From assembly GCA_937903035.1 (NCBI GenBank), contig CALCZP010000003.1, forward strand, positions 65,156 to 129,155: a DNA stretch of 64,000 nucleotides. Direction: 5' to 3'. Origin of the DNA: an uncultured bacterium (lineage in GTDB: Bacteria > Patescibacteriota > Minisyncoccia > Phycocordibacterales > UBA9973). Numbering within the stretch: the stretch's first letter is position 1; each line of letters starts with the position of its first letter. The notes beneath the pieces were generated by a model that was given only the letters and a program-made list of their open reading frames with translations, did no database searches and was not told the DNA's origin. Below, piece after piece: positions 12,240 through 46,439 of this stretch. Made by a program: the position numbers and the translations under genes.

Positions 12240-13745
12240 TTAGTCAAACTTTGGACGATATTGGAGCGCTTCGAGTATATGAGGGATCTCGATGGTTTCC
12301 GAGTTTTCGATATCAGCAATGGTCCGTGCGACTTTGATAGTGCGCATGTATGATCGTGGTGAGAGCTTAAGTTTTTGCGCATAAATCTGAAGTTGGTTTT
12401 TTGCAGTATCAGAAAGTTGTGCACGTGCATGAACATCATTTGATGAAAGTGTACTGTTGAGTTTAGTACTACGCGTATATTGTCGTTCGCGGATTACTGC
12501 AACACGATTACGTATTGTGTCGCTTTCTCGATGTGTTTCTTTTTCATGCAATGTCTCGTATTCAATATGTGATACGGGCACACATAGATCAATACGATCC
12601 ATGATTGGTCCGGACAATTTTTTACTATAGCGTGCAATCTCTGCAGCTGAGCATGTGCAGTGTTTGATACCACTTCCACGATACCCACATGGGCAGGGAT
12701 TCATCGCAGCAAGGAGTATGAAACGCGCAGGATATCTCACACTTCCTTTTGCGCGCGCAACCGTGATCGATCCTTCTTCAAGTGGTTCGCGCAGTGCCTC
12801 AATCACACGTCTATCGAACTCGGGAAATTCATCCAGATAGAGCACCCCATGATGTGAAAGTGAGATATCGCCGGGTCTGAGATTTGTACCGCCACCAATC
12901 ACTGCAACATGCGATGCACTATGATGTGGCGATCTAATGGGTGGTTGTCCGTGTAACATATCATCAATAAGTCCGATCGATGAATAGATAGTTGCAACTT
13001 CAAGAAATGCATCACTCGTGAGTGCAGGTAGTATGCCGTGAAATGCACGTGCGAGCATGGTCTTGCCAGTACCTGGTGGACCATAAAGAACAATGTTGTG
13101 CGCACCACTTGCGGCGATGACGAGTGCACGTTTTGCTTGGAGTTGTCCGCGTACATCGCCAAAGTCGACATCGCTGTACTTAGTTTGTGGTGTCGGTGCT
13201 GTGTATGTTGTCTGCTCGAGTATCACCTCTCCTTTGATGTGTGAAACAAATGCGCTGATAGTTGGTACGAGGTGAAATGTGACACCTTCGACGAGCATTG
13301 CTTCACGTGCATTTGCACTTGGTATGAATAGTTCGAGGTAGTCATTTGCTTTTGCCCACTGGGCGATCGAAAGGAGTCCTCTGATGGGTCGGAGTTCACC
13401 GTTGAGCGCGAGCTCGCCGACAAATACTTTACCTTTTGTTTCAAATGCGAGTTCTTCGGTTGCGAGTAGATAGCCAAGGGCAATGGCGAGATCAAAGTAC
13501 GCACCCTCTTTTTTGAGTTCTGCAGGTGAGAGTGAAACAATCACTTTGTGATTTTCTGCTTTCGGATTTTTGCCAAGACTATTTCTGAGCGCTGAGATGA
13601 CTCGCTCGCGACTCTCCTCTACTGCCTTGTCGGCAAGGCCGACGATCTGAAACAGGTAGAGCCCTCGACTGATATCTGTTTCCACGACGACACCATTTGC
13701 GCCAAGGCCCGAAAGTTGCGCGCTCTGTATGCGAGAGAATGACAT
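12240..13745 (-). CDS. comM: YifB/ComM family Mg-chelatase-like AAA+ ATPase
   Basis: Walker A GPPGTGKT; ChlI-like motifs; C4 zinc motif NPCPCGY...CTC. Start placed at the internal ATG (13745, MSFSRIQ...) on family alignment; the ORF extends to 13811. Confidence 0.85.
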   Translation of the reverse strand: MSFSRIQSAQLSGLGANGVVVETDISRGLYLFQIVGLADKAVEESRERVISALRNSLGKNPKAENHKVIVSLSPAELKKEGAYFDLAIALGYLLATEELAFETKGKVFVGELALNGELRPIRGLLSIAQWAKANDYLELFIPSANAREAMLVEGVTFHLVPTISAFVSHIKGEVILEQTTYTAPTPQTKYSDVDFGDVRGQLQAKRALVIAASGAHNIVLYGPPGTGKTMLARAFHGILPALTSDAFLEVATIYSSIGLIDDMLHGQPPIRSPHHSASHVAVIGGGTNLRPGDISLSHHGVLYLDEFPEFDRRVIEALREPLEEGSITVARAKGSVRYPARFILLAAMNPCPCGYRGSGIKHCTCSAAEIARYSKKLSGPIMDRIDLCVPVSHIEYETLHEKETHRESDTIRNRVAVIRERQYTRSTKLNSTLSSNDVHARAQLSDTAKNQLQIYAQKLKLSPRSYMRTIKVARTIADIENSETIEIPHILEALQYRPKFD

Positions 13746-13875
13746 ACGCTGAGTGTACTCATATGAGATAAAGAAATACTCAAGTGTGAAACATGAGATA
13801 TATTGTTTCATTTTGTTTTAAAACAATGAAACGACAAACAAAGTGTTGTGACACTTCGCGGAGAGGACTTGTTTT

Positions 13876-14217
13876 CTACTTAAATTCAAATAATGTGTCG
13901 CGGAAATCTTTGATGATACCTTTCGCATCAATCTCAATTCCTTCTGCTTTATAGAGTTTCATGCGACGTGTTGCGTACTCATCAGTGAGCCATACTTTGC
14001 CACCAGCATACACAATACGGTGAAACGGTATTCGTGTCTCTCCTGCATCATATGCCTTGCCAAGTATTGCAGTGACACTACGCGCTGCTTGCCCACCACC
14101 ACCTGCTGCTTTCGCAATGTTTCCATAGGTACTCACCTTTCCTTTCGGAATCATGAGTGCGAGCTCCACGACCCGCTGACTAAAGGTTTTACCAATTTCT
14201 TTTTTTACGATCTTCAT
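13876..14217 (-). CDS. MGMT-fold alkyltransferase-like (ATL) protein, catalytic Cys replaced by Phe
   Basis: Ogt C-terminal DNA-binding domain similarity, but PFHRIV instead of PCHRV. Confidence 0.6.
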   Translation of the reverse strand: MKIVKKEIGKTFSQRVVELALMIPKGKVSTYGNIAKAAGGGGQAARSVTAILGKAYDAGETRIPFHRIVYAGGKVWLTDEYATRRMKLYKAEGIEIDAKGIIKDFRDTLFEFK

Positions 14218-33493: not shown

Positions 33494-34720
33494 TTATGCA
33501 GTTTCTTCGCTATTTAATACTTCTTCGACTGGTTCGACGAGAGCTGTTTCTCCCATTGCTTCAGCTGCAAGATCTTTGAGAGAAACGAAATCGTCACCTT
33601 CTGGTTTGAGCATATCTTCGGATGCTTCTGCTTCGGTGCCCTTGATATCGATTTTCCATCCAGTGAGCTTTGCAGCAAGACGAACGTTCTGTCCACCTTT
33701 ACCAATGGCGAGAGAGAGCTGATCTGGAGTTACTTCAATCGTCGCCTTGTGTTCTGCTTCATCAAGAGTGATATCAAGTACTCGTGCTGGGGAGAGGGCT
33801 TTGCGAACAAATTCTTCGGGATCAGGAGACCATTCAATAATATCGATTTTCTCACCACCGAGTTCATTCATCACGGTTGAGACGCGAACACCTTTCTGAC
33901 CAACACATGATCCGACTGGATCAATATTCTGATCATCGGTCCATACGGCAATCTTTGAACGACGGCCGCCTGGTTCACGCGCAATAGCCTTTATTTGGAC
34001 AAGTCCGTTTGCAACTTCAGGGCTCTCGTATGCAAAGAGCTTTTCGAGAAATTTCGGATGGGTACGAGAAAGTCTGAGGTTTACGCCGCGAGGAGACTCC
34101 TCAACATTGTAAAGATATGCTCGGATGCGTGCGCCACGAGCATAATGTTCACCAGGAATCTGTTCATTTGGAGGGATAACACCGACTGCACGGTTAAAAT
34201 CTACAAATACGTTACCTCGATCAATTTTTTGGATGTGACCAGAGACAATATCACCTTCTTTGCTGCCAAATTCGTCTAAGATAGAAGTGCGCTCTGCTTC
34301 GCGGATGCGCTGCATGATAACTTGTTTTGCAGTTTGAGCTGCGATACGACCAAAGTCATCCTTTGGTTCGAGGGGGAATACAATTTCATCTCCGATTGCT
34401 GCATCAGTCTTCATGATACGAGCATCTTCAAGGAGAATGTGTTTCTCTTCATTATAATGTTCGCGTTCCTCGTCTTCGTGCTCGGGTTCTTCGGTGAAGT
34501 ACACCATTGAGTCGTCAACGACAGTCTTTACCTGCTCAAATGCAAAGGTACCACCATCAAGATCAATAGCTGCACGGACAACTTGGCCTTTTTTGCCATA
34601 TTCTTTTTTGTACGCGGCAGCAAGTGACTGTTCGATAGCGTCGATAAGTTTGTCGCGCGCGATACGACGCTCTCCTTCGAGCTGTTCGATCGCTAATTTA
34701 AGTGCTTTGATATCTAACAT
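33494..34720 (-). CDS. nusA: Transcription termination/antitermination protein NusA
   Basis: N-terminal domain, S1 domain, two KH domains (GxxG); 408 aa. Confidence 0.9.
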   Translation of the reverse strand: MLDIKALKLAIEQLEGERRIARDKLIDAIEQSLAAAYKKEYGKKGQVVRAAIDLDGGTFAFEQVKTVVDDSMVYFTEEPEHEDEEREHYNEEKHILLEDARIMKTDAAIGDEIVFPLEPKDDFGRIAAQTAKQVIMQRIREAERTSILDEFGSKEGDIVSGHIQKIDRGNVFVDFNRAVGVIPPNEQIPGEHYARGARIRAYLYNVEESPRGVNLRLSRTHPKFLEKLFAYESPEVANGLVQIKAIAREPGGRRSKIAVWTDDQNIDPVGSCVGQKGVRVSTVMNELGGEKIDIIEWSPDPEEFVRKALSPARVLDITLDEAEHKATIEVTPDQLSLAIGKGGQNVRLAAKLTGWKIDIKGTEAEASEDMLKPEGDDFVSLKDLAAEAMGETALVEPVEEVLNSEETA

Positions 34721-34815: not shown

Positions 34816-36273
34816 ATGAAACAGATATCCGGTCGCGCTATCTTTCTCTCGCTTCTTTTCGTCATTCTTATTGGTGGCGCAATCAAAATTTTTGCATCCG
34901 CAAGTGAAAATGTAACTGGCTACGCATGGTCATCAAACATTGGATGGCTCAGCATGAATAACTGCCAGAATGGTACCTGTGGACCTCAGGGGTATGGTGT
35001 TTCAATGATGTCGACAGCTCCTGGTACGATCAGTGGCTACGCATGGTCATCAAACATTGGATGGGTTACGTTTAATGATACTGGATGTCCTTCAACGGTG
35101 AGTGGTTGTACTGGAGGTGCATCGATTGATTGGGCTCATCCAAATAGTGATAGTACAGTCAATCTAAAAGGGTGGGCACGCGCCTGTTCAGTATTTGCAA
35201 GCGGCTGCAGTGGCGCACTTGCTGCTGATACACGTCGAGGTGGCTGGGATGGTTTTATATCTCTTAATGGCAGTAATTGGGGAGGAAAGCTTAATCCTAC
35301 GACTGGTGTGGTGACTGGCTACGCATGGGGATCAGAGATTATTGGATGGATGTCACTGACAGGAATGCAGATAGGGATACCACCGCAGCAACCTGTTACA
35401 GTAACCCTTGCTTCTGCAGATGCGTGTATACCAGCTGGTCAAAAAGGACGTTTCACCTGGGATGTTACTCCGCATAGTGCAACAAGTAGATATAATACGG
35501 GAGGTGGTGCTGGTCCTAATATTGGTGGTTGCGATATCATTAAGGGTACTAAAGCAGATCCTATTTGTGAAAAGACTACTCGAGGTGATGGTACAGGAGG
35601 AAGTCCAAATACCTATCAATATATAGAGCACACACCAGCAGATCCTTCTACAGATGATCTATGTCCTGATGAATTTGATGTTCCAAGTACTGCATTGCTC
35701 GCAGGTGGTAGTCATAACTTTCAGTCAAATGTATTTACCACTATTGGTGGAACTACGTATTATCAAACATCGCTCACACCAGCAATGAGTGATTCAGAAC
35801 CGTATATATTGCGTTGTTATGATGTGGTCAATCAGACGCAGTATGATTCACCGCAGGTATTTGTTAGTCAGTGTCCCGCACCAACTGAGGATTTCACTAT
35901 CACTGCAACACCTTCAAGTCAAAAGCTCGTTGATGGCACAGGGATTAATCTTGGTAAAAAAGTAGCGACGTTCACTATAGCGGTAAATCCTATCAGTGGT
36001 TTTGGTGCTGCGGGAGATAGTGTGGTACTTGCAATTCAGTCATACCCAACAATGCCCCCAAGTACAACATTCAACTTTAGCTCTCCGACACTCAACTGGA
36101 ACGGATCATCGTTCGGTACTGCAACACTTACGGTGGTTATTAATGCAAATGAAGTTACCACTGCAAGTTATACACCGATTGTGATCTCTGGTACTTCAAC
36201 ACCAGGGGTGCGTACCACAAGTGTTACCGTTGGAGGTAAGGGGAAGAAGCAGACGATTTTTGAAGAAATCTAG
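34816..36273 (+). CDS. Secreted protein with three tandem GYAWSSNIGW(L/V)(S/T) repeats and Cys-rich segments
   Basis: Signal peptide ending ASA; repeats at 34918-34950 and 35035-35067 (30 nt identical) and 35316-35351. Confidence 0.6.
   Translation: MKQISGRAIFLSLLFVILIGGAIKIFASASENVTGYAWSSNIGWLSMNNCQNGTCGPQGYGVSMMSTAPGTISGYAWSSNIGWVTFNDTGCPSTVSGCTGGASIDWAHPNSDSTVNLKGWARACSVFASGCSGALAADTRRGGWDGFISLNGSNWGGKLNPTTGVVTGYAWGSEIIGWMSLTGMQIGIPPQQPVTVTLASADACIPAGQKGRFTWDVTPHSATSRYNTGGGAGPNIGGCDIIKGTKADPICEKTTRGDGTGGSPNTYQYIEHTPADPSTDDLCPDEFDVPSTALLAGGSHNFQSNVFTTIGGTTYYQTSLTPAMSDSEPYILRCYDVVNQTQYDSPQVFVSQCPAPTEDFTITATPSSQKLVDGTGINLGKKVATFTIAVNPISGFGAAGDSVVLAIQSYPTMPPSTTFNFSSPTLNWNGSSFGTATLTVVINANEVTTASYTPIVISGTSTPGVRTTSVTVGGKGKKQTIFEEI
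34918..35351 (+). repeat. Intragenic tandem repeats encoding GYAWSSNIGW motifs
   Basis: GGCTACGCATGGTCATCAAACATTGGATGG occurs twice exactly, plus a diverged third copy. Confidence 0.7.
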
Positions 36274-36293
36274 TATACTTATACATACATAGT

Positions 36294-36620
36294 ATGAATG
36301 ACATTGTGCCAGCAACAGAGCAATCACTACCTATTGTAGAAAAGAAATCTCCTTTTTCTTTTCTACAAAAAGTTCCATGGCGTATCGTACTTCCTACTAT
36401 TTTTTTAGTTGTAGTGATTGCTATTTTTTTCTATATTCGTTCGACGAGAACCCAAAATACTCCTATCGAAACACTGCAAGATCTACGTACGAGCTCAATG
36501 CCGCCAATTGAATCAGAGGTACTCCGTACCTATGTAACACAAAAGACCGCTGCAACTTCTAAGCCGTATCGTCCTTCAAGAGAAACACAGCTTCAGATGC
36601 TTGAGAAGCTCGAACAATAA
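36294..36620 (+). CDS. Small single-pass membrane protein
   Basis: 108-aa ORF; TM IVLPTIFLVVVIAIFFYI. Confidence 0.4.
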   Translation: MNDIVPATEQSLPIVEKKSPFSFLQKVPWRIVLPTIFLVVVIAIFFYIRSTRTQNTPIETLQDLRTSSMPPIESEVLRTYVTQKTAATSKPYRPSRETQLQMLEKLEQ

Positions 36621-36626
36621 TATTGT

Positions 36627-37799
36627 ATGAATACTCTTTTTAAACAACTCTCACTCTTACTACCTGCACTATGTATTGCTGGTATTGCAGGAGCATATAC
36701 TCCACCTACGACTACCGCTCCAGGGGATAATACCGATGGGCCTATTACGATAGGTGCTACTAATGATGCTAAAAATGGTAGTTTGAATGTTGGTACATTT
36801 CAAGCACGTGGTAATGCATTACTTGCTCAGGATGTGTATGTGTCAGGACTCATCAATGGTGGTCATCCGTCTGATACCACTTCAACAGTGACAATCGGAA
36901 GTGCAGCTACACCAATGAAAACCATTGTTTCTGGAACCATTAGTGCTGCAAATGGGCAGTCGGGAACATTAAGTCATAGTGGAACTGGCACAAAAAATGT
37001 CTGCGCAGCTCCAGACGGTACATACATATTGTGTGGCGCTACTCCTACTGATGTTTGTCCAAATATTGCCGGCGCCCAAGCATCAATTCCTGCAGGAATG
37101 GTTATTAATGGTGCCGGGAATTGTATTGTTGAAGATCAACCAATCGATCCTGGTGTAGGTGGTGCTGGTACAGGAGGAACATTTGCAACTTGTTTTGTTG
37201 CAGATACACGAGTCACTCTTTCAGATGGGTCAAAGAAAAATATTCAGGACGTACAAATTGGTGATGTACTTCGAGGTGAGACTAGTAATAATACAGTGCT
37301 TGCATTTCACCGACCAAAACTCAATGGCATGATTTACTCATTCAATGGCGGACGATATTTTGTGACCGAAGAGCACCCATTCATGACAACTGAGGGGTGG
37401 AAGTCGATTAATCCTGAAAAAACTGCTCTTGAAAATATTGGTATTGAAGTTACCTCGCTTGAAGTAGGTGATACACTCATTACTGATCATGGTCTTGTAC
37501 TATTGACGACGATTCATGGAAAAGCGGAGTCATCTGATACTGATCTGTATAACTTCATGCTCAGCGGTGACCGGACTTACTTTGCTGATGGCTATCTCGT
37601 GCATAATAAAGCACAGTGTAGTGGGTCTACTAGTTGTGGTCCGAACCAGTACTGTATTAATAATGCAGGAGCTGTAATTACATCAGGTGGGGGATCTTGT
37701 TCTCTTGTTTGTACTCCTGGGGGGAATGTACCGACTACTGGATGTCAATCACCAAAAACACCGTATTGTGCAAGTGATAATACTGTTCGCTGTCATTAA
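36627..37799 (+). CDS. Secreted protein with a Hint (Hedgehog/intein-like, BIL-type) autoprocessing domain (37191-37607) followed by a 61-aa tail with 8 Cys
   Basis: Signal peptide; Hint block A CFVADTRVTLSDGSKKNIQDVQIGDVL, block B TEEHPFMTTEGWK, C-terminal block FADGYLVHN; tail KAQCSGSTSCGPNQYCINN...CASDNTVRCH. Confidence 0.7.
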   Translation: MNTLFKQLSLLLPALCIAGIAGAYTPPTTTAPGDNTDGPITIGATNDAKNGSLNVGTFQARGNALLAQDVYVSGLINGGHPSDTTSTVTIGSAATPMKTIVSGTISAANGQSGTLSHSGTGTKNVCAAPDGTYILCGATPTDVCPNIAGAQASIPAGMVINGAGNCIVEDQPIDPGVGGAGTGGTFATCFVADTRVTLSDGSKKNIQDVQIGDVLRGETSNNTVLAFHRPKLNGMIYSFNGGRYFVTEEHPFMTTEGWKSINPEKTALENIGIEVTSLEVGDTLITDHGLVLLTTIHGKAESSDTDLYNFMLSGDRTYFADGYLVHNKAQCSGSTSCGPNQYCINNAGAVITSGGGSCSLVCTPGGNVPTTGCQSPKTPYCASDNTVRCH

Positions 37800-37811
37800 T
37801 ATATAGATAGT

Positions 37812-38933
37812 ATGAAAAAAAACCTTCTCACCAATCTCAAATTCATCGCATTCGGTATTGTTGTTGCACTCGGAATGAGTTATGCGTCAGCTGCATGGAA
37901 TGATCCGTCAACGGGGGCGCCTGGTACCAATATTGCGCTCCCTATTCATATGGGGCAAAGTCAGCTCAAAGATGGGGGGCTTTCGGTTAATACGTTTACT
38001 GCATGGCAAAATGCGCACTTTGTACAACAAGTTTTTATTAATGAGATGCTTTCTGCCGTGACTGGATCAACCCTTGTACGGTTTGGAGGGGCTGATGCAT
38101 TAGGGACAACACGAACTGTTGCTGTTGATGTAAGTGGAGGGTTTACAACGACAGGTACTATTAAGGCAGTGAATGTTGCCGGGACCAGCGAAGGAAAACT
38201 TTGTGCAACAGCTGATGGCACTATTGTTCGCTGTGTAGCTCAGGCGGTACCTGCTACATGTGTTATTAATTCTTTTACTTCAAATAAATATAGTGTGAAG
38301 CCAAATGCGCCACAGCTCACTTTTAGCTGGTCAACTACAGGGTGCACGAGTGCTTCTATTAATGGAGTACCACTTTCATCAGTCAATGGAAGCGGGCTCT
38401 ATAATGCACCAACTCAAACAACGGTTTATACACTTACTGCCACAAATGGCACTACTAGTCCTACAAAATCATTTACTATTACGTTCGGCACTCCCCCTGT
38501 CGCAAGTTCAAATATTGCATTGTATTTAAGTGATGTACCATATGTATATAGTACAGGTACTAGTGATGGTAGTAATTATGGATACTCTTTTAAGAGAAGT
38601 TATTACGGAAAAGTGACGCTTGCACCTCAGTATGCTGTTACGCCAGGAACACCATCACCCGAGCTTGAGGTTTGTGGTGACCCTTCTCCAACATCAGCAG
38701 CTGTCTGTGCTTCTCAAAATCCTAATCCAAATAATAATCCACCACCTGATATTGAGCAGATACAACATGGTGATTATACCGTCATATTTAACGGTCTTTG
38801 TCAGAACAGTCCGGGTATGGCTAACGGTTCACCGTCTCTTCACTATAGGAATGGTGATGGAAGTGTAGGCAGTCTCGTTCCGAGTTCAATAAATATTAGT
38901 GGAATGGTCGAATTTATCGCCTCATGTCTATAA
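37812..38933 (+). CDS. Secreted paralog of the 36627 and 38938 proteins (shared N-terminal domain, Ig-like Cys-pair domain)
   Basis: First 57 nt identical to 38938; conserved GGLSV..F.A.QNA.F ... TRTV ... C.ADG.IV.C block. Confidence 0.6.
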   Translation: MKKNLLTNLKFIAFGIVVALGMSYASAAWNDPSTGAPGTNIALPIHMGQSQLKDGGLSVNTFTAWQNAHFVQQVFINEMLSAVTGSTLVRFGGADALGTTRTVAVDVSGGFTTTGTIKAVNVAGTSEGKLCATADGTIVRCVAQAVPATCVINSFTSNKYSVKPNAPQLTFSWSTTGCTSASINGVPLSSVNGSGLYNAPTQTTVYTLTATNGTTSPTKSFTITFGTPPVASSNIALYLSDVPYVYSTGTSDGSNYGYSFKRSYYGKVTLAPQYAVTPGTPSPELEVCGDPSPTSAAVCASQNPNPNNNPPPDIEQIQHGDYTVIFNGLCQNSPGMANGSPSLHYRNGDGSVGSLVPSSINISGMVEFIASCL

Positions 38934-38937
38934 ACAT

Positions 38938-40176
38938 ATGAAAAAAAACCTTCTCACCAATCTCAAATTCATCGCATTCGGTATTGTTGTTGCGTATGCC
39001 ATGAACTATGTATCAGCAAGTGCATGGATTAATCCACCTGCAAATCCTCCGATAAATAACACTGATCAGCCAGTCAATGTATCTGCTACTGATCAAGTAA
39101 AAGGTGACCCTGCTTCAGGAACAGGAGGAGGTCTTTCAGTGCTTGGTTTTGTTGCAGGACAAAATGCACAATTTGAAAAAGGGGTATTTGTTGGAGGTAT
39201 TATTCGAGGGGATTCACCGTTTGCGCCAACTACAAGCTCTACTGTCCGTTTTGGGGGAGCTACAGGACTTGGGACAACACGCACGGTCAATCTTGCCATG
39301 AACGGAAGCCTTGATACAAAAGTTTCAGTTTCTGCATCAAATCTTGCAAATGTAAGTTCTAAAGAAGTATGTGCAGATGCAAATGGAAATCTCGTATTTT
39401 GTACTACAACTCCTCCTCCTGCAGCCTGCTCAATCACTTCATTTACTGCAACTCCAAGTACTATTACTACAACTCCGGCATCAACCAATCTTCAATGGGC
39501 AACCACGAACTGTACATCTGTTACTATCGATGGTGCATTGCAGGCATCTCCAAATGGCAATGACAACTTTAGTGTGAATGCATCACATACCTATACGTTG
39601 GTTGCGACAAATACAACCTCAACTGATACAGCAACCGCACAGGTAACCTACAATCCTCCTGCTTCAAACTGTCCTGTAGGGCAGGTAGAGCTTGCTGATT
39701 TGACTGCATATGGTGCCGGGTATATCTGTGGAACACCTGGAATAAAAATCGGTGTTGCAGGTAATAATGGTTGCGGGCCATGGGGTAACTGCTATAACCC
39801 AACATATGTAAATGTCAGAACAGGTGTCAGTGTAATATTAAATGCACCTGTTGTCTCTGATACGGTATTTACCATAAAATGGACGAGCAGGGTTGGTACT
39901 TCAAATATTCCAATGCAAGAGAATTTCACCATTCTTGCAGGACAGATTCATTATGGTGGGATCATGGCTAGTCAGTTGTGGCCAGCAAGCGGTTTTGAAA
40001 CAAGTACACCTTACACCAGTGGAGTTGTTGATAGATCTGGCGTATATCGTGCCGGTACCATTTTTGGAGGAGCAGATGATTTTGGATTTCCTCTTGCGAA
40101 TATAGACAATGCAGCATGTCTTGTTGCTTCTCCAGGTGTGAACCTTGCCGCAAGTAATATTCCTGTCTGTCAATAA
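38938..40176 (+). CDS. Secreted paralog (shared N-terminus, divergent C-terminal region)
   Basis: ATG 38938, MKKNLLTNLKFIAFGIVVA identical to the 37812 protein; the ORF-track ORF begins at 38899. Confidence 0.6.
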   Translation: MKKNLLTNLKFIAFGIVVAYAMNYVSASAWINPPANPPINNTDQPVNVSATDQVKGDPASGTGGGLSVLGFVAGQNAQFEKGVFVGGIIRGDSPFAPTTSSTVRFGGATGLGTTRTVNLAMNGSLDTKVSVSASNLANVSSKEVCADANGNLVFCTTTPPPAACSITSFTATPSTITTTPASTNLQWATTNCTSVTIDGALQASPNGNDNFSVNASHTYTLVATNTTSTDTATAQVTYNPPASNCPVGQVELADLTAYGAGYICGTPGIKIGVAGNNGCGPWGNCYNPTYVNVRTGVSVILNAPVVSDTVFTIKWTSRVGTSNIPMQENFTILAGQIHYGGIMASQLWPASGFETSTPYTSGVVDRSGVYRAGTIFGGADDFGFPLANIDNAACLVASPGVNLAASNIPVCQ

Positions 40177-40180
40177 AAAA

Positions 40181-40210
40181 CAAAAAGCACCTATAGGTGC
40201 TTTTTGTTTT
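40181..40210 (+). terminator. Rho-independent terminator
   Basis: AAAAAGCACCTATAGGTGCTTTTTGTTTT; overlaps the annotated ORF start of the next gene, forcing the PilB start at 40236. Confidence 0.65.
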
Positions 40211-40235
40211 GCGCATTTCACCGTACAATGAATGT

Positions 40236-41981
40236 ATGATTGTTGATGAAGCGAAGCTTGCACGAATGATACTTGATACAGGTATTGCATCTGCTGATGA
40301 TATTGCGCGTTTTCAGTCAACACGAACAACTGATCAAACACTTTCTTCGTATCTACTCTCAAGTGGTAAGGTTAAAGAGATCGAGCTTAAGAAGCTTGAA
40401 GCATATGTGCTCGGTATCCCATTTGTAACACTCGACAAGGAGCGTCTCGAACGTGATGTGCTGTTTTTGATCCCTGAAGCGATTGCGCGCAGGTACAACG
40501 TCGTCGCATATAAGCGAAATGGCAGCAACCTTGAGATTGCAGTACTTGATATCGATAATCTTCCTGCTATTGATTTCGTTCGCAAGAAAACAGGGCTTCG
40601 TATTTTACCGCGACTTACTGATAGTGACTCGATCAAGGCAGTACTGCTGCAGTATAAAAAGAGTCTACAGGCAGAATTTGACTCTATTATCCAAAAGGAG
40701 AGTGCAAGTCTGCAAAAAATAGAAGAGAAAGATAGTGAAGTATCTCCAGAAGATCTCAAGGAGCTCGCAGAAGATCTACCAATTATCAAGATTGTTGACA
40801 CGCTTATCTCTCATGCGATTTTACAGCGTGCATCAGATATCCATATTGAGCCTGGGGAAAACGACCTCATCGTTCGCTATCGTATTGACGGTATTCTCCA
40901 TGATGCAATGACACTTCCCAAGGATGCTGCAGCAGCAGTAAGTGCTCGTATCAAAGTATTGGCAAATCTCAAGCTTGATGAAAAGCGTCTCCCACAAGAT
41001 GGACGATTCAAAATGGTAGTTGAAGAGCAGCCGGTATCGTTTCGTGTTTCAACACTTCCAACGTATTTTGGAGAAAAGACTGTCATTCGAATTTTGCGCG
41101 AGTCATCTCATGGCTACACAATGGAAGGGCTCGGCTTTCATGGGGATTCGCTTGAGCTTGTGCATGATGGTATGCATCAGCACTCTGGTATTATTCTTTG
41201 CTCTGGTCCGACCGGTTCGGGTAAAACCACTACCCTCTATACCATGCTTGATATCTTGAACACGCCTGAGGTGAATATTTCGACTATTGAAGATCCGATT
41301 GAATATCAAATGGCCCGTGTTAATCAGACGCAAGTGAAAAGTGAGATTGGGATGACCTTTGCAAACGGTCTGCGTGCACTGCTTCGTCAGGATCCTAACA
41401 TTATCATGGTAGGGGAGATCCGAGACGGAGAGACTGCTGATCTCGCCGTGAATGCGGCGCTTACTGGTCACTTGGTGCTCTCTACTATCCACACCAACTC
41501 GGCTGCGGGCGCTATCCCGCGACTCATTGATATGGGGGTTGAGCCATTTTTGATCACCTCAACTGCAAAGAGCATTATTGCGCAGCGACTCGTACGACGA
41601 CTTACCTCAGTCAAAGAAGAGTATTTCTTATCACCGGGTGAGTTGCAGCAGCTTGCACATGCGGTTGATTTGGATCGCCTGCGTCACATGCTTGAGCTTG
41701 AAAACATTATCAAGGCAGGAACACCATGGGAAAAGATTCCATTTTATCGTCCAAAGAAAAGTGAGGAAAGTGACGATGGCTACAAGGGGCGCATTGGTAT
41801 TCATGAGGTGCTTAAAGTTTCTCCTACAATCAAAGAAATTATTTTGCGAGGTGGTTCAAGTGATGAAGTTGAATCCCAGGCTAAAAAAGAAGGGATGACA
41901 ACAATGCTCGAAGACGGTATGTTCCAGGCAGTACAGGGCAAAACCACTATTGATGAAGTACTTCGTGTTGTTTCCGAGTAG
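40236..41981 (+). CDS. pilB: Type IV pilus assembly / T2SS ATPase PilB/GspE
   Basis: Walker A GPTGSGKTTTLY; Asp box; His box; GspE N- and C-domains. Confidence 0.9.
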   Translation: MIVDEAKLARMILDTGIASADDIARFQSTRTTDQTLSSYLLSSGKVKEIELKKLEAYVLGIPFVTLDKERLERDVLFLIPEAIARRYNVVAYKRNGSNLEIAVLDIDNLPAIDFVRKKTGLRILPRLTDSDSIKAVLLQYKKSLQAEFDSIIQKESASLQKIEEKDSEVSPEDLKELAEDLPIIKIVDTLISHAILQRASDIHIEPGENDLIVRYRIDGILHDAMTLPKDAAAAVSARIKVLANLKLDEKRLPQDGRFKMVVEEQPVSFRVSTLPTYFGEKTVIRILRESSHGYTMEGLGFHGDSLELVHDGMHQHSGIILCSGPTGSGKTTTLYTMLDILNTPEVNISTIEDPIEYQMARVNQTQVKSEIGMTFANGLRALLRQDPNIIMVGEIRDGETADLAVNAALTGHLVLSTIHTNSAAGAIPRLIDMGVEPFLITSTAKSIIAQRLVRRLTSVKEEYFLSPGELQQLAHAVDLDRLRHMLELENIIKAGTPWEKIPFYRPKKSEESDDGYKGRIGIHEVLKVSPTIKEIILRGGSSDEVESQAKKEGMTTMLEDGMFQAVQGKTTIDEVLRVVSE

Positions 41982-42001
41982 TGTTCTGCTACACTTGATG
42001 G

Positions 42002-43213
42002 ATGAAGTTCTCATATAAAGCACGAAATACATCTGGTGCAATTGTCACTGGAGTCATCGATGCAGATGAGCGAGGAGATGCTATTTCAGCGCTTCGAGAA
42101 ACAGGTCTTTCGCCTATTGTGATTTCTAAGCAAACAGCACTCAGTTTTTCTATTACTATAAGTAGTGTGCTCAAGCGAGTAAAACTTTCAGAGAAGATTA
42201 TTCTCATGAAAAATCTCTCAGGTATGCTCCGTGCAGGACTCTCTATTTCGCGAGCTCTTGTTGTGCTTCAAAAGCAAACACCGAATGCCTATTTTAAAAC
42301 AGTGATTGGTGGACTCCTTGCTGCGATTGATAATGGGGGTACCCTTTCTGAAGGTCTTGCGCAGTACCCAAAAGTTTTTTCAACACTGGTGGTTGCAATG
42401 ATACGTTCTGGTGAAGAGTCAGGAAGTCTACCACAAGCATTGGCTGAGATTGAGGTGCAGCTAGCAAAAAGCTATGAGCTTAGGCGCAAAATTAAAAGCG
42501 CAATGATGTACCCATCTATTATTCTCGGTGCGATCTTTATTATTGGTATCCTTATGTTTATCTTTGTGGTGCCAACACTTACAAGTACGTTCAAGGAGCT
42601 TGGAGTCGAACTTCCAGCGTCAACAAAGCTTGTGGTAGGACTTAGCGATTTAATTTCAAATCATATTGCACTACTGGTTGGGGGGATTGTTGGTATTATT
42701 GTTATTGTCATAGTGCTTGCAAGATTTAGAGTAGTTCGTCGAGGGTGGGATTTTATTTCAGTACGTATTCCGGTGGTTGGCACATTACTCCAGGAGGTGA
42801 ATGCTGCACGTCTGACACGAACGCTTTCATCACTTTTGAGTTCTGGTGTCACGATCGACAAAGCAATCACCATATCCAAAGATGTACTACAAAATTCGTA
42901 TTACCGTGATAGTCTCGATGAGTTAATGGTTGTCGTACAGCGTGGCGAAACCCTTTCGAGTGTATTTCAGAAATATCCAAAACTCTATCCGATCATGGTT
43001 GCTGAAATGATAGAGGTAGGAGAAGAGACGGGTAAACTTTCACAAATGTTGTTGGACGTAGCCGTGTTTTATGAGGGGGAGGTTGATGCAAAGACAAAGG
43101 ATCTTTCTACGATCATTGAACCCGTGTTAATGCTATTTATTGGGGTTTGTGTAGGGTTCTTCGCGGTCTCTATGCTCTCGCCGATGTATAGTATTATGGA
43201 CTCTATCAAATAA
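42002..43213 (+). CDS. pilC: Type IV pilus / T2SS platform protein PilC/GspF
   Basis: Two T2SS-F domains; 3 TM; 403 aa. Confidence 0.88.
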   Translation: MKFSYKARNTSGAIVTGVIDADERGDAISALRETGLSPIVISKQTALSFSITISSVLKRVKLSEKIILMKNLSGMLRAGLSISRALVVLQKQTPNAYFKTVIGGLLAAIDNGGTLSEGLAQYPKVFSTLVVAMIRSGEESGSLPQALAEIEVQLAKSYELRRKIKSAMMYPSIILGAIFIIGILMFIFVVPTLTSTFKELGVELPASTKLVVGLSDLISNHIALLVGGIVGIIVIVIVLARFRVVRRGWDFISVRIPVVGTLLQEVNAARLTRTLSSLLSSGVTIDKAITISKDVLQNSYYRDSLDELMVVVQRGETLSSVFQKYPKLYPIMVAEMIEVGEETGKLSQMLLDVAVFYEGEVDAKTKDLSTIIEPVLMLFIGVCVGFFAVSMLSPMYSIMDSIK

Positions 43214-43218
43214 CTAGT

Positions 43219-43677
43219 ATGAAATCATTTCAGACAGGCTACTCAGCAATTCAACTTATTGTGACTATTGCGATCATTGGCATACTCCTTGGGGTGGTGA
43301 GTGTGCCATTTTTGAAATTTCGCCAACAACAAGCACTTGAGAACACAACTGATGGGCTTGTATCAGTACTTGGCGAAGCTCGTGCCAAGACACTTGCCGG
43401 CTATGACAACACTTCATACGGTGTTCATATCGAAGCAGCACAGTTTGTACTTTTTACAGGGACGACATATAACGCAAATGCATCGACCAATAAAACATTT
43501 TTTTATGAAACAGGTGTGTCGCTCGGGACACTTACACTTAACGGTAGTGGATCAAACATAAGTTTTGATCGACTCAAAGGAACGACGTCACAGTATGGTA
43601 CGATTGTATTGCAATCACAAAACGGTCAGACTCGTACTATTACTATCACTAGTACTGGTACGGTAAAACGAAATTAA
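43219..43677 (+). CDS. Prepilin-type pseudopilin, GspH/FimT-like (Gln at +5)
   Basis: MKSFQTG/YSAIQLIVTIAIIGIL N-terminus. Confidence 0.65.
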   Translation: MKSFQTGYSAIQLIVTIAIIGILLGVVSVPFLKFRQQQALENTTDGLVSVLGEARAKTLAGYDNTSYGVHIEAAQFVLFTGTTYNANASTNKTFFYETGVSLGTLTLNGSGSNISFDRLKGTTSQYGTIVLQSQNGQTRTITITSTGTVKRN

Positions 43678-43682
43678 ACAGT

Positions 43683-44153
43683 ATGCAGCACAAACAGACA
43701 CAACAAGGATTCTTTCTCGTAGAAGTTATTGTTGCGTCATCAGTCATTGCAGTTGTACTTGTACTATTACTTGGGTCCATTCAACATACTGTAGAGGCTT
43801 CACAGCGAAGTCTTGAGCGTACGCAAACTGCCTATCTGCTTGAGGAAGGGGCAGAGGTGGTGAAACTTATACGCAGTGAGGCGTGGTCATCGATCAGTGG
43901 GCTTACCGCTGGTACGACGTACTATTTTCTATGGACTGGATCGGTGTGGACACTTACGACAACACCTCAAACGATAAATGGGTTTACTCGCACGGTGGTA
44001 ATGACCTCGGTCAATCGCGATGGAAATAATGATATTGTCACTTCAGGCGGTACTATCGATAATGGTACCAAAAAAGTCACCATTACTGTTTCATGGATAG
44101 CTCCATCGGGAGTGCAGACAGAGAATATGTCGTTGTATATAACCAATATATGA
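43683..44153 (+). CDS. Prepilin-type minor pilin
   Basis: QQG/FFLVEVIVA with Glu +5. Confidence 0.7.
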   Translation: MQHKQTQQGFFLVEVIVASSVIAVVLVLLLGSIQHTVEASQRSLERTQTAYLLEEGAEVVKLIRSEAWSSISGLTAGTTYYFLWTGSVWTLTTTPQTINGFTRTVVMTSVNRDGNNDIVTSGGTIDNGTKKVTITVSWIAPSGVQTENMSLYITNI

Positions 44154-44650
44154 GAAACCATAAACAACAAGGTTATTCGTTAATTGAGCTGGTGATCTAT
44201 ATTGCACTTTTTGCACTGATCTCCGTAGTTATTGTAAATGCGCTGATTATGGTAATGCGTACCTATGCGTCCGCTCAAGGTTATAGAAGACTTCAAACTA
44301 ATGGAGAACTCATTATGGAGCGCGTTGTTCGAGAAATACGCGATGCATCAGTCGTATCAGGAAATAGTGTCTATGGAGTAAACTCTGGCACACTCTCACT
44401 TTCTGGTACTGACAGTAGTGGTACGGCACATACGGCAGTGTTCTCAGTATCAAACGGTGCGTTGGTGCTCAATGAAAATGGTACCAGTGCAAATCTTTCG
44501 ACTTCTGAAGTCGTGGTTAGTACGTTTATCGTTCGCCATATTACGACAACGAACGGGGAGGGTATCAAGGTTGAGCTTACACTTGCGACGACGAATGGCC
44601 ATATTGTGAGTGTACCATTTTATGCAACTGCAATGCTTCGAGGAAAATAA
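44150..44650 (+). CDS. Prepilin-type minor pilin
   Basis: MRNHKQQG/YSLIELVIYIALF from ATG 44150 (ATGA overlap with the upstream stop); the ORF extends to 44093. Confidence 0.7.
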   Translation: MRNHKQQGYSLIELVIYIALFALISVVIVNALIMVMRTYASAQGYRRLQTNGELIMERVVREIRDASVVSGNSVYGVNSGTLSLSGTDSSGTAHTAVFSVSNGALVLNENGTSANLSTSEVVVSTFIVRHITTTNGEGIKVELTLATTNGHIVSVPFYATAMLRGK

Positions 44651-44651
44651 T

Positions 44652-46439
44652 ATGTACAAGGATTTCACTACAAATGGAAACAAGGGAAATGTGTTGATCA
44701 TTGTGATGGTGCTCTTTGTGGCAATTTCACTTTCTGTTGCACTAGGGTTGGTGACACCAGTGATACGCGCGAGTCATAGCGCGCAAAATGCACTTGAATC
44801 AAAGCGTAGTTATTTTATCGCAGAGTCAGGTGTCGAAGATGTGCTATATCGTCTCCGCTCATCCATGAGTGTCTCATCGAGCGAGACGTTGGTGCTTGGT
44901 ACACAAGAAACAACAACAACGCTAACAGATATCCAGAATGGACAGAAACAAATTGAATCACTCGGTGATAGTCAAAACCGTAACAGGTCTGTCACGGTAA
45001 CGGTACAACAAGGAGCTGGTGTGTCATTCAACTACGGACTCCAGGTTGGTCGCGGTGGTATAGATCTTGCTGGAAGTTCTGGTATTAATGGAAACGTGTA
45101 TGCCAACGGCAACATTCACGGTACGTCGAGCTCATTTATTACGGGAAGTGCAATTGCTGCTAGTAGTGATGCGCTCACTACTGATCAGTCAAATGGAACT
45201 GGTACGCCGACATCAGGTATTACGTTCGGGAATGCAACAGCGACACAGAGTGTTGCACAAAGCTTTGTGGTTTCAGAGGAAATTCCACTCAACAAATTGC
45301 AGTTATATCTACTAAAAACAGGAAGTCCTTCCAATATTACTGTTTCGATTGCAGCTGATGCTGGAGGTGTACCAAGTACAACAACACTTGCAACAGGAAG
45401 TATTTCGGCATCTTTGGTAACTACTGCATATGGATGGGTTGATGCGACATTTACTTCGAGTCCAACATTACAAACAGGTACCACCTACTGGATCGTCCTT
45501 ACTGCAGGAACTTCAGCAACAGCAAACTATACAATCGGTACAAATACAAATGGTTACATAGATGGAACGAGTAAGATTGGCAGACATAGTACGAGTGTAT
45601 GGTCTGCACCCACGCCTGCAACGCTTGATACATATTTCAAGCTCTATCTTGGTGGTCTTACATCATCAATTTACGGGGATAGTCAGTACAATCAGCTACA
45701 TATTGGTACAAGCGGTGCTGGTATTGCCAAGGCACATACGGTGAACTATACCAATGCCACTGGTAGTATCTATTGCCAAACAGGGACACTCAACAATAAG
45801 GCCTGCAATACTACCCAGGCTGATCCAACTCCTGAGCCATGGCCTGTTTCTGATGGAAATATCGATACTTGGAAAGCAGAAGCAGTTGCGGGAGGGACGC
45901 TTAGTGGTAATCAAACATACGGAGGCACAACAAACACCACTCTTGGCCCGAAGAAAATTGCAGGTAACCTAAGTATTGGCGGTAGTGCAGTTGTGAGTGT
46001 GACAGGGACACTGTGGGTAACAGGTAATCTGACTGTAGATGGTTCTGGTGCATTAAAACTTGCGAGTGCGTATGGATCAGGGAGTGGGACGATTATTGTA
46101 GATGGTAGAGTAATCATTGCGGGTAGCTCTCCTGTGACAGGGAGTGGTACAACAGGGAGTTATATTATGATTCTTTCTCTTTCTGACTGCCCTACGAGCT
46201 CCTCATGCAGTGGTTCGAATGCTATTGATATTAGTGGTGCTGCTGGAGCAGTCATTTTAGTTGCCCAAAATGGCACAATTAACTTTAGTGGGTCAGCAAG
46301 TGCAAAACAGGCAACGGGGTATACTATCAAACTCTCCGGTGCTACGACTGTGACATATGAAAGTGGTATTGCAAATCTTAACTTTACCAGTGGAGCATCG
46401 GGCTCATGGGTTGTTCAATCTTGGAAAGAAACGGAGTGA
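44652..46439 (+). CDS. Large pilus-associated protein, PilX-like N-terminus
   Basis: N-terminal NKGNVLIIVMVLFVAISLSVALG hydrophobic segment; 595 aa, Thr/Gly/Ser-rich. Confidence 0.5.
   Translation: MYKDFTTNGNKGNVLIIVMVLFVAISLSVALGLVTPVIRASHSAQNALESKRSYFIAESGVEDVLYRLRSSMSVSSSETLVLGTQETTTTLTDIQNGQKQIESLGDSQNRNRSVTVTVQQGAGVSFNYGLQVGRGGIDLAGSSGINGNVYANGNIHGTSSSFITGSAIAASSDALTTDQSNGTGTPTSGITFGNATATQSVAQSFVVSEEIPLNKLQLYLLKTGSPSNITVSIAADAGGVPSTTTLATGSISASLVTTAYGWVDATFTSSPTLQTGTTYWIVLTAGTSATANYTIGTNTNGYIDGTSKIGRHSTSVWSAPTPATLDTYFKLYLGGLTSSIYGDSQYNQLHIGTSGAGIAKAHTVNYTNATGSIYCQTGTLNNKACNTTQADPTPEPWPVSDGNIDTWKAEAVAGGTLSGNQTYGGTTNTTLGPKKIAGNLSIGGSAVVSVTGTLWVTGNLTVDGSGALKLASAYGSGSGTIIVDGRVIIAGSSPVTGSGTTGSYIMILSLSDCPTSSSCSGSNAIDISGAAGAVILVAQNGTINFSGSASAKQATGYTIKLSGATTVTYESGIANLNFTSGASGSWVVQSWKETE

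Follow-up and report, generated by a model that had tools for sequence, protein, structure and literature searches.

A BIL-type Hint domain with a nearly invariant +1 lysine in a predicted exported protein of a Paceibacteria bacterium

In a window of 64,000 nucleotides (nt) from an uncultured bacterium (positions 65,156 to 129,155 of contig CALCZP010000003.1, assembly GCA_937903035.1, forward strand; positions below count from the first letter of this window), an intact open reading frame (ORF) at 36627..37799 (+) encodes a protein of 390 amino acids (aa) plus stop codon. We suggest that this is an exported protein built around a Hint domain of the bacterial intein-like (BIL) type, whose self-cleavage would free a small cysteine-rich module. 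The protein is found residue for residue on 5 public contigs, including one of 405 kb; the three that were inspected belong to three different ENA samples or assemblies. Judged by its sequence, it would be an autoprocessing protein of the BIL type whose flanks and lineage are new, the activity being predicted. That variable secreted proteins can carry Hint or BIL domains has been known since 2003, and current knowledge is not overturned here. A-type BIL domains are reportedly the subject of Amitai et al. 2003 and Dassa et al. 2004, and C-type BIL domains of predatory bacteria that of Dori-Bachash et al. 2009. The carrier belongs to the Paceibacteria of the Candidate Phyla Radiation (CPR, Patescibacteria), which agrees with the lineage side of an original prediction, made by a model from the letters alone, of a host-dependent organism; it is ultra-small and probably host-attached. 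The prevailing view of CPR bacteria is that they live on host cells, to which they attach, and to our knowledge a chemistry has been assigned to few of their surface molecules.

The Hint fold is established, and so is its full set of catalytic motifs: Cys in block A, TxxH in block B and His-Asn in block G. The domain covers residues 189-327 (139 aa, 37191..37607 (+)). Cys189 at 37191-37193 opens the stretch CFVADTRVTLSDGSKKNIQDVQIGDVL (CFVADTRVTL…), block B is T247-E-E-H250 at 37365-37376 within TEEHPFMTTEGWK, and FADGYLVH326N327 closes the domain at 37607, with His326-Asn327 at 37602-37607. The N-terminal Cys, TxxH, FADGYLVHN and +1 Lys are thus all found where the original prediction had placed them. 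An AlphaFold2 (AF2) model built from 60 homologues reaches a predicted local distance difference test score (pLDDT) of 86-98 across the domain. Foldseek with this model returns 32 Hint or intein structures at E<=1e-3, the best being BIL2 of Tetrahymena BUBL (E 8.5e-11, template modelling (TM) score 0.79, 26% identity), and others including the gp41-1 intein, the BIL structure 2LWY (1.2e-7), many inteins and Hedgehog 1AT0 (1e-4).

Searches of family libraries with the single sequence were less telling. All Pfam matches fall below their gathering cut-offs (Vint 1.2e-4, Hom_end_hint 2e-4, Hint 4.5e-3, PT-HINT 0.18), and NCBIfam did no better. Stronger evidence came from phmmer against PDB sequences, which matched the BUBL1 BIL2 domain (6Y75/6TMM) over residues 189-327 at 2.5e-5. 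A family profile from 34 diverse Hint domains (alignment A2) is significant against PDB, with BIL2 at 1.5e-17, the Clostridium thermocellum BIL 2LWY at 8.3e-14 and the gp41-1 intein at 2.4e-10. The two solved BILs outrank every intein in this search. Residues C1, H62, P63, F64, H138 and N139 of the domain are invariant across the 34 sequences. Model, structure search and profile all uphold the earlier identification of a Hint domain, and its closest characterised relatives are BIL domains, not inteins or Hedgehog (Hog) domains.

One further Pfam match lies within the domain. The lowest single-family E value on the query (2.4e-6) belongs to AXH, the Ataxin-1/HBP1 module, at residues 247-286 (37365-37484); the match is partial and sub-threshold (28.5 bits, cut-off 33). 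AXH is also matched by 23/34 of the family Hint domains, and the family profile matches Ataxin-1 AXH structures at 3e-5. This suggests a sequence relationship between Hint and AXH and is no sign of a second domain.

The homologue search gave 150 proteins at E<=1e-3; the named ones are from Candidatus Paceibacterota or Nomurabacteria and are annotated as "hypothetical" or "Hint domain-containing". More than 100 relatives, mostly Paceibacteria, retain Cys1 and the terminal His-Asn. Junctions were counted over 142 Hint domains in 120 proteins: Cys1 is present in 131/131, Phe2 in 129/131 and terminal His-Asn in 120/133, while T-x-x-H of block B varies little or not at all. In 152/154 proteins the catalytic Cys is the sole cysteine within Hint. 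Across 16 full-length orthologues, identity to the query is 68% in Hint, 32% in the N-region and 35% in the tail. The N-region ranges from roughly 90 to 560 aa among relatives, the tail type varies and Hint is conserved. In other words, the most conserved part of the protein is its self-processing domain and the ends vary. Inteins show the opposite pattern, and the finding fits the published setting of BILs, which sit in hypervariable regions of non-conserved secreted proteins (PMC7765530; PMC5874633).

A-type BILs are defined as Hint domains of 130-155 aa with C-terminal His-Asn and no obligatory +1 nucleophile (PMC9185962; PMC7765530). As far as sequence can tell, our domain has the accessible features of this class: the size, Cys1, His-Asn, no Cys, Ser or Thr at +1, and a place in a hypervariable, exported, non-conserved protein. 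These features are shared with the C. thermocellum BIL 2LWY (Hint of ~139 aa), which ranks second among solved structures in the family-profile search and is also among the best Foldseek matches. Identity to 2LWY is only ~22%, however, and the subfamily signature, the +1 Lys, the CPR-specific N-module and the Cys-rich tails set our protein apart.

A class 1 mini-intein such as gp41-1 has the size and fold of our domain as well as its blocks A, B and G, and gp41-1 is among the best structural matches. It is nevertheless extremely improbable that the domain is either a genuine mobile mini-intein within a conserved host protein or a structural domain that has lost its catalysis. We rejected the mobile intein because of the +1 Lys in place of a +1 nucleophile, flanks less conserved than Hint, no endonuclease and no intein-less tail allele among 1.84 billion representative proteins; nor is Hint here inserted in a conserved housekeeping protein. 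The dead domain is effectively excluded, as all catalytic residues are intact and conserved.

The protein around Hint is modular. It starts with a predicted Sec-type signal peptide (residues 1-23, MNTLFKQLSLLLPALCIAGIAGA|Y, 36627..36695 (+)), in which a hydrophobic core at residues 7-20 (Kyte-Doolittle about 2.0-2.3) is followed by A-G-A; neither a prepilin motif nor a lipobox is found in this region. Export through the Sec route is accordingly predicted, in line with the earlier description of a secreted protein. The N-module follows at residues ~24-140 (36696..37046 (+)) and contains the pair C126/C136. A linker of residues 141-188 (37047..37190 (+)) has the pair C144/C166 and a Gly-rich stretch ending in the -1 residue Thr188 (…GTFAT|C). 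Behind Hint comes a tail of 63 aa, K328-H390 (37608..37796 (+)), with the pattern K-x2-C-x5-C-x5-C-x14-C-x3-C-x10-C-x7-C-x7-C-H, its cysteines being residues 331, 337, 343, 358, 362, 373, 381 and 389. The original prediction had the 8 Cys right and the length, given as 61 aa, wrong. Outside Hint, Cys counts of the mature protein are even (4 in the N-region, 8 in the tail).

The observed basis of our proposal is thus the predicted Hint fold, a catalytic set conserved at both junctions, the Sec-type N-terminus and the module structure. In the course of events that we favour, with a probability of about 0.45, Hint cleavage is the main outcome and frees both the N-module and the Lys-initiated 63-aa disulfide-rich module. 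The protein would first be exported, and Hint would then fold as predicted. Cys189 would perform an N-to-S acyl shift at Thr188|Cys189, assisted by T247 and H250 of block B. Next, Asn327 would cyclise with the help of His326 and cut Asn327|Lys328. We infer the acyl shift and the Asn cyclisation from the complete, family-invariant set of catalytic residues. Mainly cleavage would result: the 8-Cys module leaves with an N-terminal Lys, the thioester of the N-module is hydrolysed and Hint is discarded. A minor share might be re-ligated by aminolysis as N-module-Lys-tail. Cleavage was chosen as the main outcome because BILs are reported to yield mainly cleaved products for want of a +1 nucleophile (PMC7664689). 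Such processing would mature or diversify one member of a conserved surface-protein cassette that lies next to nusA and is often co-oriented with pilus genes. Because of this membership, the Hint protein would serve cell-surface or host interaction and not enzymatic toxin delivery.

Several points weigh against this proposal. The +1 Lys is kept irrespective of what follows, be it a stop codon (HN-K-stop) or Cys1 of a second Hint (HN-K-Cys1), and a release function cannot account for a Lys retained even at HN-K-stop. Any function of the tail is wholly conjectural, since it matches no fold or family. The N-module is modelled by AF2 with pLDDT below 50, so that its fold prediction is of low confidence. 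The signal peptide and the disulfides are our reading of the sequence and not the output of a dedicated predictor. Finally, linkage to the pilus genes is not universal: at some loci of relatives, which we cite by L numbers (L004, L010, L015, L016, L019), no pilB is nearby and the cassette continues into tpiA.

The signature of this Hint subfamily reads HPFxTxxGWK … ADGYLVHN-K. Its +1 Lys, here Lys328 (codon AAA, 37608..37610 (+)), is nearly invariant, with K at 110/133 C-terminal junctions. This conservation is the strongest argument for a lysine-dependent reaction. One such reaction is ligation as the main outcome: Hint would be excised and the N-module joined to the tail via Lys328, either by its alpha-amine, which Asn cyclisation would set free (aminolysis as in A-type BILs), or by its epsilon-amine (an isopeptide like that of BUBL BIL2). 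This would give a 228-aa product, N-module plus Cys-rich head, laid out like the adjacent paralogues. Retention of the Lys regardless of the following sequence points to chemistry and not to the tail. Two of the paralogues in the cassette (D and E, described below) do consist of the N-module and a C-terminal domain, without Hint. Further, junction motifs of the N-extein co-vary with tail type, as in [YF][YF]A[HST]|C, which recurs before Hint in orthologues with 8-Cys tails, but this could be mere phylogeny. A-type BILs can in some cases splice without a +1 nucleophile (PMC5874633; also, by its title, Aranko 2013 as cited in PMC9185962).

The closest solved relative by both sequence and structure, BIL2 of Tetrahymena thermophila BUBL1 (6Y75/6TMM), uses a lysine amine as nucleophile and makes an isopeptide between K(epsilon-NH2) and a C-terminus (PMC8616854). 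By analogy, this lysine chemistry may be relevant to the invariant +1 Lys of our protein, although BUBL1 is eukaryotic and cytoplasmic with ubiquitin-like flanks, while our protein, predicted to be exported, has flanks with no relation to ubiquitin. The earlier statement that splicing is unlikely with Lys at +1 is therefore unsafe, given both the splicing of A-type BILs and the epsilon-amine ligation by BIL2. Still, we hold ligation as the main outcome to be rather unlikely. BILs are predominantly cleaved according to the report cited above, aminolysis by an alpha-amine does not specifically require Lys, and a Hint-less fusion of N-module and tail was not found among 1.84 billion representative proteins (see below). 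From this last result, a directly fused product is evidently no acceptable substitute for the processed one.

The +1 residue differs in one minority branch (P0102, P0109, P0110, P0118; L040, L048, L054, L075), which has Val instead of Lys. In this branch, a conserved VDL[FIV]PIAEA-like motif stands right after His-Asn, and in some members Cys-rich sequence comes next.

Returning to cleavage as the favoured outcome, the module that it would free deserves a closer look. Tails after HN-K fall into types with 8 Cys (33 proteins), 13 Cys (17), 6 Cys (14), 9 Cys (10) and 15 Cys (10); other proteins of the family have a low-complexity tail, a second Hint or nothing past Lys. Most Cys-rich types join one mosaic cluster with the shared opening K-x-x-C…C…C[ILV][DN], the 6-Cys type being separate. 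The Cys at +4 (K-x-x-C), present at 75/133 junctions, is common to otherwise unlike tail types. Odd Cys counts (13, 9, 15) are frequent, and such tail types would probably have one unpaired Cys. Relatives thus display the arrangement of Hint plus Cys-rich tail that the original prediction described, with tails polymorphic across the family. When 19 tails of the 8-Cys type are aligned, Lys1 and seven Cys are invariant and the eighth Cys is nearly so, at a mean identity of 36%. The tail is therefore not poorly conserved, as its Cys framework is kept across all 19.

A profile of these 19 tails was run by hmmsearch against 1.84 billion representative proteins. It found 8 proteins, all with the tail after a Hint domain; the sole apparent exception is a fragment that still bears the Hint C-terminus. 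Neither a free-standing tail nor a Hint-less fusion of N-module and tail was among the matches from this set. Pfam gave no match for 7 representative tails, hence no recognised toxin family, and no known fold or family matched the 8-Cys tail. Modelled alone by AF2, this tail has a pLDDT of 77 and four short strands. These results lend no support to the earlier view of the tail as knottin- or bacteriocin-like, and the 63-aa tail is better regarded as a small, so far uncharacterised module rich in disulfides.

The tail diversity also bears on whether the protein is a classical polymorphic toxin (PT-HINT/MafB-like), in which the tail, once freed by Hint, would act as a peptide toxin that harms bacteria or the host. 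In Neisseria, class 1 MafB consists of a signal peptide, DUF1020, an optional BIL and a variable toxin (PMC4436062), and our protein has the same order of signal peptide, family-specific N-domain, Hint and polymorphic C-terminal module. PT-HINT matches 16/34 family Hint domains at E<=1e-3, and some tail types are swap candidates, apparently exchanged between closely related Hints. However, the query itself does not reach the PF07591 (PT-HINT) gathering threshold (12.5 bits, cut-off 27.7, E 0.18), and most Cys-rich tails form one mosaic family and not a set of unrelated toxin domains. Among toxin families and folds the tail has no match; it is a 63-aa disulfide-rich module and not an enzyme domain. 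Where the sequence beyond the Hint gene could be read, in 20 Paceibacteria loci, the gene just downstream of it always encodes a signal-peptide protein or PilB, and no small cytoplasmic immunity-like ORF is present there. Within the 64-kb window, tblastn finds the gene itself alone, with no second copy of Hint or tail and no orphan cassette. The gene also occupies a conserved core-genome position by nusA and no variable island. A toxin role is therefore quite unlikely, and the polymorphic toxin system of the original prediction is not borne out in respect of immunity genes and orphan cassettes.

Alternatively, a nucleophile from outside the protein might resolve the thioester at Cys189, for example an amine of the cell wall, a lipid, a pilin or a lysine on the host surface. 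In this Hedgehog-like trans-conjugation the N-module would become covalently anchored, with the tail in an accessory role, binding the nucleophile or bringing it into position. The Hog domain resembles ours in its Hint fold, in the thioester chemistry of Cys1 and in having a short module behind Hint. Pilus genes adjoin the Hint gene, BIL2 attaches its N-flank to lysines on other proteins (PMC8616854), and the same Hint subfamily caps prepilin-like proteins in Bdellovibrionota (Pfam N_methyl 22.1 and 21.9 bits, cut-off 21.2). Nevertheless, we consider this course very unlikely. Terminal His-Asn is not used by Hog and is dispensable for the Hedgehog-type reaction, yet it is strongly selected here; from its conservation we expect the C-terminal junction to be cut too, unlike in Hog. 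In addition, the N-terminus of our protein is Sec-type and not prepilin-type, and the sequence names no acceptor. Cutting across these alternatives, the +1 Lys subfamily might perform lysine-directed acyl transfer. The N-flank thioester would go either to Lys328, so that N-module and tail become linked by a peptide or isopeptide bond, or to a lysine elsewhere, on a different surface protein, on a pilin or on the host envelope; we regard this as quite improbable.

The Bdellovibrionota proteins have a counterpart in the literature. PMC9185962 mentions a C-type BIL class defined in Bdellovibrio and linked to a 'PPS-1' domain, and the Hint subfamily that caps pilin-like proteins of Bdellovibrionota may be this published class. 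Our protein differs in that it has no pilin-like N-terminus and a long Cys-rich C-flank. A search seeded with a pilin-Hint protein of Bdellovibrionaceae returned no protein named as B. bacteriovorus. Among the matches listed in a literature search, the term 'Hint domain' was absent alongside CPR or pilins.

The N-module is shared with the two genes that follow the Hint gene. Paralogue D (373 aa, 37812..38933 (+)) and paralogue E (412 aa, 38938..40176 (+)) each have a signal peptide, the N-module and a different C-terminal region; blastp with the N-module gives 31% identity and E 2e-9 for the former and E 1e-6 for the latter. The paralogous secreted-protein cassette noticed earlier is therefore real. 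By tblastn, copies of the N-module are also found in orthologous cassettes (L004, L006, L013, L022), and it matches no Pfam family. At loci without a pilus block, the gene directly after the Hint gene encodes an exported protein of 137-157 aa made of the N-module alone (L004 11356-11799; L010 11347-11796; L016 10640-11053; L019 10624-11088; L022 10636-11109).

The Hint gene is the third in a co-oriented row with gaps of 4-60 nt. The row starts with a gene for a 485-aa exported protein (34816..36273 (+)) with GYAWSSNIGW(L/V)(S/T)(M/F) repeats at residues 35 and 74. Second is a gene for a 108-aa single-pass membrane protein (36294..36620 (+)), 6 nt upstream of the Hint gene. Hint gene and both paralogues come next, followed by a type IV pilus-like block (40236..46439 (+)) and then tpiA and pgk. 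The block encodes PilB (T2SSE) and PilC (T2SSF) by Pfam, three prepilin-like ORFs with the N-termini G|YSAIQL, G|FFLVEV and G|YSLIEL, and a 595-aa membrane-anchored protein. A consensus scan of 34816-46439 (+) found no convincing intergenic terminator, with counts at or below chance; this is weak evidence, consistent with co-transcription.

On the other side of the cassette lies nusA (33494..34720 (-)), divergently transcribed, which serves as a landmark in Paceibacteria. In nearly all Paceibacteria species representatives, NusA is 56-82% identical, and its gene is divergent and ~1.5-6.5 kb from the Hint gene (L004, L006, L010, L012-L020, L022, L024-L026, L028, L048, L054). Conversely, pilB lies <=10 kb from the Hint gene in only 5/22 Paceibacteria-type loci: the window's own, L006, L013, L021 and L024. 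These 22 distinct loci are the 21 of the downstream-gene comparison plus L048, L007 and L008 being copies of the L006 contig. Since nusA is almost always near and pilB in few loci, the conserved unit is a core-genome surface-protein cassette, and the pilus block, though often next to it, is dispensable. The predicted pilus association thus stands for the window, where the pilus genes are directly downstream of the cassette, and is only partial as a general link.

The other cassette members recur as well. The 485-aa repeat protein is found by tblastn at 32-45% identity in L004, L006, L010, L013, L015, L016, L019, L022 and L024. Together with a counterpart of ~100 aa to the 108-aa protein, it forms a pair present in syntenic Paceibacteria loci, neither having a Pfam family. 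In L024 the order differs, a 98-aa protein (12471-12767) preceding the repeat protein (12770-14137).

What could such a protein mean for its carrier? On sequence evidence, we see in it a real, conserved candidate surface factor of CPR, with well-known chemistry and architecture and one puzzling conserved residue. The candidate is concrete: a widely conserved, predicted exported protein by nusA, often by type IV pilus genes. If processing frees or re-attaches a variable disulfide-rich head, then a tiny genome could mature and diversify host-contact proteins without dedicated proteases or sortases. If lysine-directed transfer were true, it would amount to an enzyme-free, extracellular, ubiquitination-like conjugation device in episymbiotic or predatory microbes (CPR, DPANN, Bdellovibrionota). 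The invariant +1 Lys poses a clean biochemical question on BIL chemistry, and the pilin-like fusions of predatory bacteria broaden it.

The same Hint subfamily occurs in other settings. The list of 79 species-representative loci contains many from CPR classes, DPANN (Woesearchaeota, Nanobdellota), Bdellovibrionota and Micavibrio, lineages of attached or predatory lifestyles; as it is ordered by similarity to the CPR query, it gives no measure of enrichment. In Bdellovibrionota the domain (40-48% identity) is located at the very C-terminal end of proteins that start like prepilins, for example …RGFSMVEVTVAMGLL. These proteins end in HN-K, HN-R or HN and a few residues, a Hedgehog-like layout; their genes are L055 9020-10438, L065 9029-10444, L071 8930-10477, L077 8303-10450 and 10465-12756, and L078 8831-10480.

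A third architecture around the domain is found in Alpha- and Gammaproteobacteria (L062, L063, L069 with two genes, L076, L081, L084, L085, L066, L072). Here Hint begins ~15-20 residues past the signal peptide, and HN-K is followed by a Cys-free low-complexity tail of 90-230 aa rich in Gly, Glu, Ser and Asp. Multiple copies occur too. The SR1 bacterium RAAC1_SR1_1 has four Hint copies (L035, 9431-14132), with in-frame stops in table-11 translations, as expected from the alternative genetic code of the SR1 lineage. A 4119-aa protein of Mucilaginibacter angelicae (L032, 3002-15361) contains three tandem Hints separated by K-G-G-D-S|C.

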